From: a virus | UHGV virus genome: UHGV-0096542 | Strand: one strand, 5' to 3' | Length of the DNA: 11,607 bases | Part shown: positions 7,384 to 9,912 of the stretch, in pieces | Layout: the number at the start of each line of letters is the position of its first letter | Position numbering within the stretch: the stretch's first letter is position 1 | Program-made: the position numbers and the translations under genes | The notes under the pieces: model-generated | What the model was told of the DNA's origin: nothing | The model's input: the letters and a program-made list of their open reading frames with translations, nothing else | The model's database searches: none

Positions 7384-7535
7384 GCGAAATTAACTAGAAG
7401 CCAAAGATAAAATCATCGCTGAGCAGGAGAAAATCGCTAACGGAGAAAAGACAGTAAGTCAGTATATGAAAACCGCATGATATCATCAGATAAAAATCGG
7501 TCGTAGAGCAAAATATTAATACCAGAACAAACGAG

Positions 7536-7559
7536 TCGAGGTAAATTATATTACCTCGA
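7536..7559 (-). terminator. Hairpin (9-bp stem TCGAGGTAA / TTACCTCGA, 6-nt loop) immediately downstream of the minus-strand membrane-protein gene; candidate terminator for that gene
   Basis: Perfect 9-bp inverted repeat 7536..7544/7551..7559 about 35 nt beyond the stop codon at 7594..7596; followed on the minus strand by a moderately U-rich tract (CUCGUUUGUUCUG). Confidence 0.4.
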
Positions 7560-7593
7560 TAAATTAACTAAAACTTGCCCGCTATATACTATA

Positions 7594-8196
7594 TCATTCA
7601 GTATCATCACGCACGGTCTGTGCATATGTCACTACCGCACCTAATATATTAATTTTCTTTTCAACATAGATAATATTATCGTACTCATAATTGCCATACG
7701 GATAGCAAATGCGAATATTCTCATGTAGATCGGGGTCATCCACCTCAGCGCCAGAACAACTTTTTGAACTACCGGAAGTATACCGATACGGTGCAACATA
7801 AGACGATGTCTCTCCAGGCAAAAAATAAGTTAGTGTCGTAAGGGGTATAATCAGAAAAAATCCAGCAAATATGCACATCCCTGCATAAACCTTAAGGTAT
7901 GCTGACAGACTCTTCCAGCCTCTTTGTTTTACTATCCCCTTCTTAACCCAAAACAGAGATAACAGAAAAGCTATTCCCATGCTAAACAGAATGTAATAGT
8001 GGGATATACTCTGATTAAGAAACGTGACCCTGTAGATATCTGCCCGCCACCAGAAGAAAAGGAAAATAAAGATCAGCCCTGAAACTGTCATGCAAATCAA
8101 ATAAGGATACGAATCTTTTTTCATGTTTAGCGCCCATAAAATTTTTCCTGACCCGGACAAATTTACCATCCATTTTTTGCGCAGAAAATAACTCAT
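7594..8196 (-). CDS. Hypothetical integral membrane protein (200 aa from first ATG; alternative starts at codons 10 and 25), three predicted TM helices plus a ~75-aa C-terminal domain; antisense to the pL operon in the ea22/ea8.5 slot
   Basis: Long uninterrupted minus-strand ORF in a markedly AT-rich segment; hydrophobic stretches YLICMTVSGLIFIFLFFWW, YYILFSMGIAFLLSLFWV, VYAGMCIFAGFFLIIPLTTLTYFL; followed by a hairpin; no resemblance to lambda proteins I know. Confidence 0.7.
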   Translation of the reverse strand: MSYFLRKKWMVNLSGSGKILWALNMKKDSYPYLICMTVSGLIFIFLFFWWRADIYRVTFLNQSISHYYILFSMGIAFLLSLFWVKKGIVKQRGWKSLSAYLKVYAGMCIFAGFFLIIPLTTLTYFLPGETSSYVAPYRYTSGSSKSCSGAEVDDPDLHENIRICYPYGNYEYDNIIYVEKKINILGAVVTYAQTVRDDTE

Positions 8197-8438
8197 TACT
8201 TACTGCACAATAATACACAAAATTGCGTAAATTTTTTGCATGGATTTTAGCTCTTTCAGCCGACATTTAAGGGGTAAATAGCATTTCCTAAAAGCAACTG
8301 CACCAACCCAACAGAATGGGCTACCGCTTACGTTGAGAGCAAAAAAGTGTATAGCAGCAATGAACAGCATCCTCGCACTGACGAGGATTTCTTTTATCTG
8401 AACTCGCTACGGCGGGTTTTGTTTTATGGAGATGATAA

Positions 8439-8606
8439 ATGCACTTCCGAGTCACAGGTGAATGGAATGGAGAACCATTCAACAGAGTTATCGAAGCCGA
8501 GAACATCAGCGACTGCTATGACCACTGGATGCTGTGGGCGCAGATAGCACATGCAGACGTAACCAATATTCGAATTGAAGAACTGAAAGAACACCAAGCC
8601 GCCTGA
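8439..8606 (+). CDS. Small hypothetical protein (55 aa, MHFRVTGEWNGEPFNRVIEAENISDCYDHWMLWAQIAHADVTNIRIEELKEHQAA) immediately upstream of xis
   Basis: ORF read manually (below six-frame cut-off); GGAG 8 nt upstream of ATG; in-frame TAA directly upstream fixes the start; stop codon lies in the loop of the following hairpin. Confidence 0.45.
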   Translation: MHFRVTGEWNGEPFNRVIEAENISDCYDHWMLWAQIAHADVTNIRIEELKEHQAA

Positions 8607-8618
8607 TGGCGGTTTTTT
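8599..8618 (+). terminator. Intrinsic terminator-like hairpin (CCGCC-TGAT-GGCGG + T6) just upstream of pI/xis
   Basis: 5-bp GC stem 8599..8603/8608..8612 followed by TTTTTT at 8613..8618. Confidence 0.4.
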
Positions 8619-8619
8619 C

Positions 8620-8633
8620 TTGCGTGTAATTGC
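8620..8633 (+). promoter_or_regulatory. pI promoter -35 region with CII binding repeat (TTGCGTGTAATTGC) driving int
   Basis: TTGC-N6-TTGC direct repeat 12 nt upstream of the xis ATG, matching the recalled lambda pI CII site. Confidence 0.6.
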
Positions 8634-8645
8634 GGAGACTTTGCG

Positions 8646-8864
8646 ATGTACTTGACACTTCAGGAGTGGAACGCACGCCAGCGACGCCCAAGAAGCCTTG
8701 AAACAGTTCGTCGATGGGTACGCGAGTGCAGGATATTCCCTCCTCCGGTTAAGGATGGAAGAGAGTATCTGTTCCACGAATCAGCGGTAAAGGTTGACTT
8801 AAATCGACCAGTAACAGGTAGCCTTTTGAAGAGGATCAGAAATGGGAAGAAGGCGAAGTCATGA
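8646..8864 (+). CDS. xis: Excisionase Xis (72 aa)
   Basis: Translation MYLTLQEWNARQRRPRSLETVRRWVRECRIFPPPVKDGREYLFHESAVKVDLNRPVTGSLLKRIRNGKKAKS matches lambda Xis; overlaps int start. Confidence 0.97.
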   Translation: MYLTLQEWNARQRRPRSLETVRRWVRECRIFPPPVKDGREYLFHESAVKVDLNRPVTGSLLKRIRNGKKAKS

Positions 8865-9912
8865 GCGCCGGGATTTACCCCCTAACCTTTATATAAGAAA
8901 CAATGGATATTACTGCTACAGGGACCCAAGGACGGGTAAAGAGTTTGGATTAGGCAGAGACAGGCGAATCGCAATCACTGAAGCCATACAGGCCAACATT
9001 GAGTTATTTTCAGGACACAAACACAAGCCTCTGACAGCGAGAATCAACAGTGATAATTCCGTTACGTTACATTCATGGCTTGATCGCTACGAAAAAATCC
9101 TGGCCAGCAGAGGAATCAAGCAGAAGACACTCATAAATTACATGAGCAAAATTAAAGCAATAAGGAGGGGGCTGCCTGATGCTCCACTTGAAGACATCAC
9201 CACAAAAGAAATTGCGGCAATGCTCAATGGATACATAGACGAGGGCAAGGCGGCGTCAGCCAAGTTAATCAGATCAACACTGAGCGATGCATTCCGAGAG
9301 GCAATAGCTGAAGGCCATATAACAACAAACCCTGTCGCTGCCACTCGCGCAGCAAAATCAGAGGTAAGGAGATCAAGACTTACGGCTGACGAATACCTGA
9401 AAATTTATCAAGCAGCAGAATCATCACCATGTTGGCTCAGACTTGCAATGGAACTGGCTGTTGTTACCGGGCAACGAGTTGGTGATTTATGCGAAATGAA
9501 GTGGTCTGATATCGTAGATGGATATCTTTATGTCGAGCAAAGCAAAACAGGCGTAAAAATTGCCATCCCAACAGCATTGCATGTTGATGCTCTCGGAATA
9601 TCAATGAAGGAAACACTTGATAAATGCAAAGAGATTCTTGACGGAGAAACCATAATTGCATCTACTCGTCGTGAACCGCTTTCATCCGGCACAGTATCAA
9701 GGTATTTTATGCGCGCACGAAAAGCATCAGGTCTTTCCTTCGAAGGGGATCCGCCTACCTTTCACGAGTTGCGCAGTTTGTCTGCAAGACTCTATGAGAA
9801 GCAGATAAGCGATAAGTTTGCTCAACATCTTCTCGGGCATAAGTCGGACACCATGGCATCACAGTATCGTGATGACAGAGGCAGGGAGTGGGACAAAATT
9901 GAAATCAAATAA
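8842..9912 (+). CDS. int: Lambda integrase Int (356 aa, tyrosine recombinase)
   Basis: Translation MGRRRSHERRDLPPNLYIRNNGYYCYRDPRTGKEFGLGRDRRIAITEAIQANIELF...HELRSLSARLYEKQISDKFAQHLLGHKSDTMASQYRDDRGREWDKIEIK matches lambda Int including the C-terminal catalytic H-x-x-R...Y region. Confidence 0.97.
   Translation: MGRRRSHERRDLPPNLYIRNNGYYCYRDPRTGKEFGLGRDRRIAITEAIQANIELFSGHKHKPLTARINSDNSVTLHSWLDRYEKILASRGIKQKTLINYMSKIKAIRRGLPDAPLEDITTKEIAAMLNGYIDEGKAASAKLIRSTLSDAFREAIAEGHITTNPVAATRAAKSEVRRSRLTADEYLKIYQAAESSPCWLRLAMELAVVTGQRVGDLCEMKWSDIVDGYLYVEQSKTGVKIAIPTALHVDALGISMKETLDKCKEILDGETIIASTRREPLSSGTVSRYFMRARKASGLSFEGDPPTFHELRSLSARLYEKQISDKFAQHLLGHKSDTMASQYRDDRGREWDKIEIK

Follow-up and report, generated by a model that had tools for sequence, protein, structure and literature searches.

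A lambdoid phage orf55 gene with a t'I-type terminator over its stop codon, a probable compact unit insulating pI and xis

The DNA analysed in this work, a stretch of 11,607 nucleotides from the virus genome UHGV-0096542 (hereafter the window), represents an early-left region of a lambdoid phage, shown in the sense in which pL transcription runs. Its positions 8300-8700 are 100% identical at the DNA level to phage mEp332 and 96-98% identical to lambda and 434, and the annotated gene order of mEp332 is cI, ea10, kil, gam, bet, exo, orf60a and further genes, then xis and int. The gene under study, orf55, is the last gene of the exo-xis block and lies on the pL strand directly upstream of xis; it was found in the same place in loci L028-L033, which carry three different excisionase/integrase types. 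Compared with lambda, two opposite-strand ORFs of 200 aa and 56 aa stand in place of ea8.5/ea22, the same arrangement as in 434 and mEp332, and a PADLOC search gave no match for either of them. In the 434 genome a CII-consensus site is annotated inside the 56-aa opposite-strand ORF. The features of the region are listed in Table 1.

Table 1. Features between the opposite-strand ORFs and int in the window
Feature	Position	Strand	Basis or annotation
ORF, 200 aa	7594-8196	-	Annotated as putative membrane protein in 434 and mEp332
ORF, 56 aa	8200-8370	-	Annotated as putative membrane protein in 434 and mEp332
tL4 intrinsic terminator, ATCCTCG-CACTGA-CGAGGAT plus TTTCTTTT	8369..8396	+	Scan, fold; homologous annotations
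Second terminator-like hairpin, GAACTCGC-TACG-GCGGGTT plus TTTTGTTTT	8400..8427	+	Scan, fold
Shine-Dalgarno GGAG	8428..8431	+	Sequence; ribosome-binding site annotated at the same place in OL657226.1
orf55 coding sequence, 55 aa, ATG start	8439..8606	+	Sequence and ORF list; equivalent to lambda lambdap35, 434 ORF55 and PHROG 676
t'I-type intrinsic terminator	8596..8618	+	Scan, fold, annotations at homologous places, conservation and compensatory change
CII-binding repeat TTGC-N6-TTGC of the pI promoter	8620..8633	+	Sequence; CII site and pI promoter annotated in OL657226.1 at the same offset from xis
xis, excisionase, 72 aa	8646..8864	+	ORF list, lambda RefSeq, mEp332 annotation
int, integrase, 356 aa	8842..9912	+	ORF list, lambda RefSeq, mEp332 annotation

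The orf55 reading frame ends in TGA (8604-8606). Its Shine-Dalgarno GGAG is separated from the ATG by a spacer of 7 nt (ATGATAA), and an in-frame TAA at 8436-8438 directly abuts the ATG. A previous sequence-only reading of this DNA had described the start as GGAG-N8-ATG with an in-frame TAA upstream of 55 codons; the ORF, the GGAG and the TAA stand, and the spacer is one nucleotide shorter than given there. The same reading knew of no annotated lambda gene at this place and proposed a comparison with the lambda reference, which in fact carries one: lambdap35 (NP_597778.1) is annotated in the lambda RefSeq record at 29118..29285c, between ea8.5 and xis. The gene is named ORF55 in the 434 int-xis record M60848.1 (protein AAA67903.1) and orf55 in the exo-xis literature (PMC3824215, PMC8614690), where it is counted as the seventh ORF of the exo-xis region (PMC3824215). 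The product encoded in the window shows 96.4% protein identity to lambdap35, from which it differs by two amino acids (N24S, I32L), and the PHROG 676 profile matches it over residues 1-55 of 55 (E = 5.5e-40). It shares with lambda orf55 and 434 ORF55 its length, its ribosome-binding site, its place directly upstream of xis and a terminator over the stop codon. We concluded that, judged by sequence, this ORF is the lambdoid phage gene orf55, which is already named and was not left unannotated. It has been suggested that orf55 may act jointly with orf73, ea22 and ea8.5 to block the initiation of host replication (cited in PMC9239242), and the orf55-orf60a block is deletable (PMC12318184). The "ORF55" of the EVADES preprint was set aside; it is a DNA ligase of phage DruSM1 and is unrelated to lambda orf55.

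The ORF could also be a chance open frame over a regulatory spacer in which only the RNA or DNA elements matter. Three points are compatible with such a reading of orf55: the product belongs to no Pfam family, the annotation of lambdap35 says only "Predicted by GeneMark", and lambdap35 was not included in the CRISPRi essentiality map (PMC10695390). The substitution pattern argues against it. In 71 unique 168-nt coding sequences, taken from about 180 loci, variable sites are distributed over the three codon positions as 21/10/44, third positions dominating; dN/dS is 0.07-0.12 (about 0.1) in comparison with the Klebsiella-type copies, where synonymous sites are saturated, and for the 481 pairs with 10 or more differences the median is 0.24. 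Distant homologs in other phages and prophages, at 35-53% identity, are 51-64 aa long and share the core motif F-x-x-T-G-x-W-N-G-E-x-F-x-R-V-I-E-A-E-D in addition to their length. Structure prediction gave a confident fold, and the ORF is present in 2549/5426 complete E. coli genomes (about 47%). The codon-position variation and dN/dS values already effectively refute the chance-frame reading, which we regard as hardly credible, and they indicate that orf55 is a genuine protein-coding gene under purifying selection. The frame is kept among lambdoid phages, a point on which the sequence-only reading had let its ORF stand or fall.

The orf55 family is small: clustering gives 98 groups at 90% identity and 51 representatives at 50%, and many of these are fragments or chimeras. 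Searches of Pfam, of PDB sequences and of PADLOC returned no meaningful match. Among the exo-xis genes, only the five conserved ones are named in PMC8614690 as supported by ribosome profiling. When viral contigs were scanned with the family alignment, the top 80 loci showed 96-100% identity throughout, and the contigs were queried again with the Klebsiella allele to obtain diversity; a scan of viral contigs with the Flyfo homolog as query gave no match. A scan of genome contigs returned almost exclusively the lambda allele of orf55, from assemblies that include Shewanella, Pseudomonas, Chromatium, Kitasatospora and Oceanobacillus (L007-L022), and several of these contigs span about 48.4-48.5 kb; the occurrences in unrelated bacterial assemblies look like lambda DNA contamination. 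"Campylobacter phage CJLB-4" (MW057783.1, 48,361 bp) resembles lambda as well. In a lambda-like contig assigned to Ancylomarina sp. (L014), a second copy of the first 17 nt of orf55, together with the ribosome-binding site, stands upstream of tL4 and is joined to sequence that is found upstream of tL4 in lambda; this contaminant contig derives from lambda, perhaps by way of a cloning vector, and has undergone a small rearrangement. Fused or extended orf55 proteins occur in the databases (P0099, P0100, P0102), for example as read-through into an AlpA-like excisionase, and another entry carries an N-terminal fusion to a different small protein. The fused entries are probably frameshifts, assembly errors or recombinants.

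A terminator scan of positions 7400-9000 found 7 terminator-like sites compared with 1.5 +/- 1.4 in shuffled sequences, the hairpin at the orf55 stop codon among them, and three terminators stand in tandem within 250 bp upstream of xis. The first hairpin (8369-8388) is tL4, annotated at the homologous position as "t-L4" in M60848.1 (434) and as "tL4 terminator" in X51962.1 (HK022). At least six versions of the tL4 hairpin (L003, L109, L125, L186 and L076 among the loci) join one and the same T-tract, ATTTCTTTTATCTG, and the mosaic joint at which upstream modules meet the orf55 cassette is within tL4. The second hairpin (8400-8419), followed by UUUUGUUUU, abuts the Shine-Dalgarno sequence of orf55 and opens the conserved unit. 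It folds at -12 kcal/mol (z = -3.0) and is constant in nearly all lambda-type loci, with one pair-preserving G/A variant; it carries no annotation in the 434, HK022 and lambda records examined. No promoter-like site was found on the + strand from 8011 to 8439, the interval from tL4 to the ATG included, where the scan returned terminators only.

The third hairpin holds the stop codon of orf55. Its core consists of CCGCC (8599-8603), the loop TGAT (8604-8607) and GGCGG (8608-8612), followed by T6 at 8613-8618, and can be extended from five G-C pairs by a G.U and two A-U pairs to 8 pairs (8596-8615). The TGA makes up the first three bases of the 4-nt loop, and the 5' arm is formed by the last two Ala codons of orf55, GCC GCC. 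The predicted folding energy is -14.6 kcal/mol, with z = -2.9 against dinucleotide shuffles. Sequence, scan and fold thus bear out the GC hairpin with T6 that the sequence-only reading had placed over the stop codon, directly upstream of the CII site of pI. A bidirectional terminator at this place was considered and rejected, since the minus-strand fold (z = -1.1) is no better than shuffles and lacks a T-tract. Fold and Rfam searches around orf55 found no alternative structures, no Rfam family (only a chance snoRNA match at E = 0.55) and no regulatory codon runs. A terminator t'-I is annotated just before xis in M60848.1 (434), the 434 genome record OL657226.1 has a terminator annotated upstream of pI/xis that cites PMID 6305007, and the HK140 annotation places a rho-independent terminator over the orf55 stop. 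By position, the stop-codon hairpin corresponds to the already annotated t'I terminator and is not new.

We then looked at the stop codons of orf55 homologs for hairpins with a T-tract, requiring a stem of 5 bp or more that includes 3 or more G-C pairs; stem pairs were counted by script and by eye, the MAFFT alignment having misplaced loop-length differences among the terminator variants. A hairpin and T-tract with the loop overlapping the stop codon were present in 178/185 loci carrying an orf55 homolog, and T-tracts of 5-8 residues were retained with the hairpin. A rough control took in 96 terminator-like sites from ten diverse loci; in only eight of them did the loop contain the stop codon of an ORF of 40 aa or longer, and six of these eight were orf55 homologs. 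The stop-in-loop arrangement at orf55 exceeds chance. In the Flyfo siphovirus Tbat2_3 (L034), the stop codon of another small gene, which lies two genes upstream from the orf55 homolog, likewise falls in a hairpin loop followed by a T-tract (2166-2185), and the arrangement is therefore not unique to orf55.

The stems vary in ways that mostly keep the pairing. Phage 434 has GCCGCC/GGAGG with one mismatch; in L148 a compensatory G-C to U-A change (GCCTCC/GGAGG) restores the pair that is lost in 434 and turns an Ala into a Ser. One-sided changes that preserve pairing occur as a G.U pair in L132 and as an improved outer pair in L158 and L030. In more distant copies the hairpin is rebuilt with the stop codon again in the loop: GCCGCC-CACUGA-GGCGG-U5 in the Klebsiella-type copies, GUCGC-UAACUA-GCGGC-U6 in the Flyfo Tbat2_3 homolog and GCCGC-CUAACAA-GCGGC-U6 in L188, a cI-proximal metagenomic homolog. 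Such rebuilt terminators extend to homologs of about 45% identity, and those of Flyfo Tbat2_3 and L188 are kept although the genes sit away from xis/int. The hairpin is absent where the next gene overlaps orf55 (L190, L192, a Morganella phage).

Sequence identity among the orf55 loci stops right after the T-run of this terminator, and at least six unrelated modules follow it in different loci: lambda-type pI/xis, ORF114 (434), an AlpA-type excisionase (HK140), two other classes in E. coli phages and Klebsiella-type modules. Since identity ends after the T-run at one end and varied tL4 hairpins sit on one T-tract at the other, both borders of the orf55 cassette fall in terminator T-tracts. Phage 434 (L001, M60848.1) has two terminators in this part, at 530-555 and 960-991. 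The one at orf55 carries the stem mismatch given above; the pI-proximal hairpin, GCCGCA-TCAA-TGCGGC, follows the inserted ORF114 and joins the same TTTTCTTGCG sequence of pI. It lies about 58 nt past the nearest stop codon, that of ORF114, and so is not coupled to any stop codon. The presence of a second 434 hairpin at pI after ORF114 supports the need for a terminator right at pI.

In lambda, N-antiterminated pL transcripts supply both xis and int, and CII-activated pI supplies int alone. The N-modified polymerase ignores intrinsic terminators, and the pL transcripts that get this far are N-modified. We propose, with a probability of roughly 0.85, that orf55 and its terminator form a compact gene-plus-terminator unit that insulates pI and xis and in which the stop-in-loop geometry is inherited and is not a control point. 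The terminators around orf55 would stop unmodified RNA polymerase; xis and int would be reached only by N-antiterminated pL transcription, which passes over terminators, and int alone would be made from pI, so that pI and xis would be insulated from stray transcription from upstream. Flanked by tL4, the second hairpin and t'I, orf55 is a terminator-bracketed cassette; the unit is passed on together with the gene, and its T-tract serves as the joint to which different downstream modules are attached. A ribosome trailing closely would be expected to weaken t'I, apparently as a side effect. The simplest account of the geometry is that a compact unit is inherited, with a 5' arm made of Ala-Ala codons in a disordered tail; low confidence in the last 6 residues of the protein model (see below) fits C-terminal codons that are free to encode the hairpin stem. 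The retention of the stop-in-loop in four divergent lineages could mean that the geometry itself is selected, which the insulator model does not need.

The sequence-only reading had likened the coupling of stop codon and terminator to a translation-sensitive terminator gating pL read-through into xis/int: ribosomes finishing orf55 would cover the 5' arm and the loop, and read-through would depend on orf55 translation. The part of this claim that concerns sensitivity to ribosomes is to be expected. With the stem starting 5 nt ahead of the stop codon, folding would be blocked by a ribosome that occupies about the last seven codons. The stop lies in the loop and the 5' arm is the last two codons, which places the stop codon within the distance of about 10 nt from a hairpin at which a ribosome can prevent folding (PMC4824070). 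In vivo, termination at lambda tR2 fell from about 90% to under 10% when a stop codon was shifted from 28 to 5 bp upstream of the terminator, and was restored without translation (PMC4824070); in the orf55 family the stop-in-loop is retained in lineages with 45-75% protein identity. The part that concerns gating is not supported. The pL transcripts here are N-modified and pass terminators regardless, as is established for lambda, and unmodified polymerase would meet tL4 and the second hairpin first, both of them in untranslated RNA. The 434 pI-proximal terminator stands apart from the ORF114 stop, and the orf55 hairpin of the same phage is mismatched. Genes other than xis follow the orf55 terminator in many phages, and no element modulating orf55 translation was found. 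With 168 nt, orf55 is also short, and coupling of ribosome and polymerase is weak early in genes (PMC4824070). Dependence of downstream genes on read-through from orf55 is likewise not borne out, given at least six unrelated following modules and the uncoupled 434 terminator. We consider translational gating of xis/int unlikely. A related proposal is that the stop-in-loop is under selection as a ribosome-sensed valve, through which a non-antiterminated polymerase reads into the next module (xis/int in lambda) when a coupled ribosome follows, and otherwise stops. It is raised because the stop-in-loop is kept despite saturated synonymous divergence and at different genomic positions, and it would tie downstream expression to the translational state of the cell; we hold it to be improbable. 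Were the stop-in-loop regulatory, it would act as a translation-sensed checkpoint upstream of xis/int, and N antitermination makes its relevance in lambda unlikely.

The hairpin might instead serve mainly as a 3'-end stabiliser or processing barrier that protects the orf55 mRNA from 3' exonucleases, with insulation of pI/xis playing no part. It accompanies orf55 at every location, including those far from xis/int (L034, L188), and is missing only where the next gene overlaps orf55 (L190, L192), both of which would suit a stabiliser; a hairpin kept purely for stability needs no T-tract, whereas one of 5-8 residues is kept, and the separate 434 terminator directly before pI argues for a role at pI. 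We therefore judge the stabiliser a doubtful alternative to the insulating gene-plus-terminator unit. In lambda, the pI-adjacent terminator is the 3' end of a mobile orf55-plus-terminator cassette. The gene and the terminator themselves were already known, and the importance of the result is small: it corrects the impression that there is no lambda gene here and ties the hairpin to annotated terminators. The new points are modest: gene and terminator are inherited together like a cassette, mosaic joints fall in T-tracts, and a second, unannotated hairpin lies upstream of the ribosome-binding site.

The AlphaFold2 model of Orf55 has a pLDDT of 90.6 and a beta-beta-alpha-beta topology, with low confidence only in the last 6 residues. 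Its best fold match in the PDB is T7 Gp2, the inhibitor of host RNA polymerase (PDB 4lk0, 4llg, 2wnm): in a Foldseek search the Gp2 structures reached TM 0.57-0.62 with 23-25% identity over 44-47 residues, the top match being 4lk0_M (E = 0.041, TM 0.57) and 4llg having TM 0.62, weak matches of which none is at E <= 0.001. Matches in BFVD include several viral "RNA polymerase inhibitor" models, again none at E <= 0.001. The family profile compared with the Gp2 sequence by hhalign, after that sequence had been verified against PDB 2wnm/4lk0/4llg, gave a probability of 2.0-2.2% and thus no significant homology. Orf55 has previously been modelled by docking as a possible T7 Gp2-like binder of RNA polymerase, in a model that its authors call speculative (PMC8614690), and the Foldseek match reproduces that proposal. 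A Gp2-like role of Orf55 in binding RNA polymerase is a lead only, suggested by the modelled fold; for a gene carried by about 47% of complete E. coli genomes, this weak Gp2-like fold is the sole functional lead.

Compared with known systems, the orf55 terminator is like t'I of lambda and 434 in being a GC hairpin with a T-run that ends directly at the TTGC-N6-TTGC CII site of pI; here, as in lambda, a single hairpin is both the terminator of orf55 and the one next to pI, in contrast to 434. Relative to T7 Gp2, only one of the two critical arginines of Gp2 has a counterpart in Orf55 (N43/R45) (PMC8614690). The stop codon within or next to a hairpin that a trailing ribosome should prevent from folding is shared with ribosome-repressed terminators (Li et al. 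2016, PMC4824070, and the pyrBI attenuator cited there). Unlike those systems, orf55 has no regulatory input that we found, and N antitermination already overrides terminators in this operon. Lambdoid phages also carry morons, which are autonomous promoter-gene-terminator insertions. Like a moron, orf55 is a small accessory gene with its own terminator at mosaic joints; the moron reading was rejected for want of a promoter-like site on the + strand between tL4 and the ATG. Unlike morons, which bring their own promoter, orf55 runs in the same direction as the pL operon and seems to rely on it.
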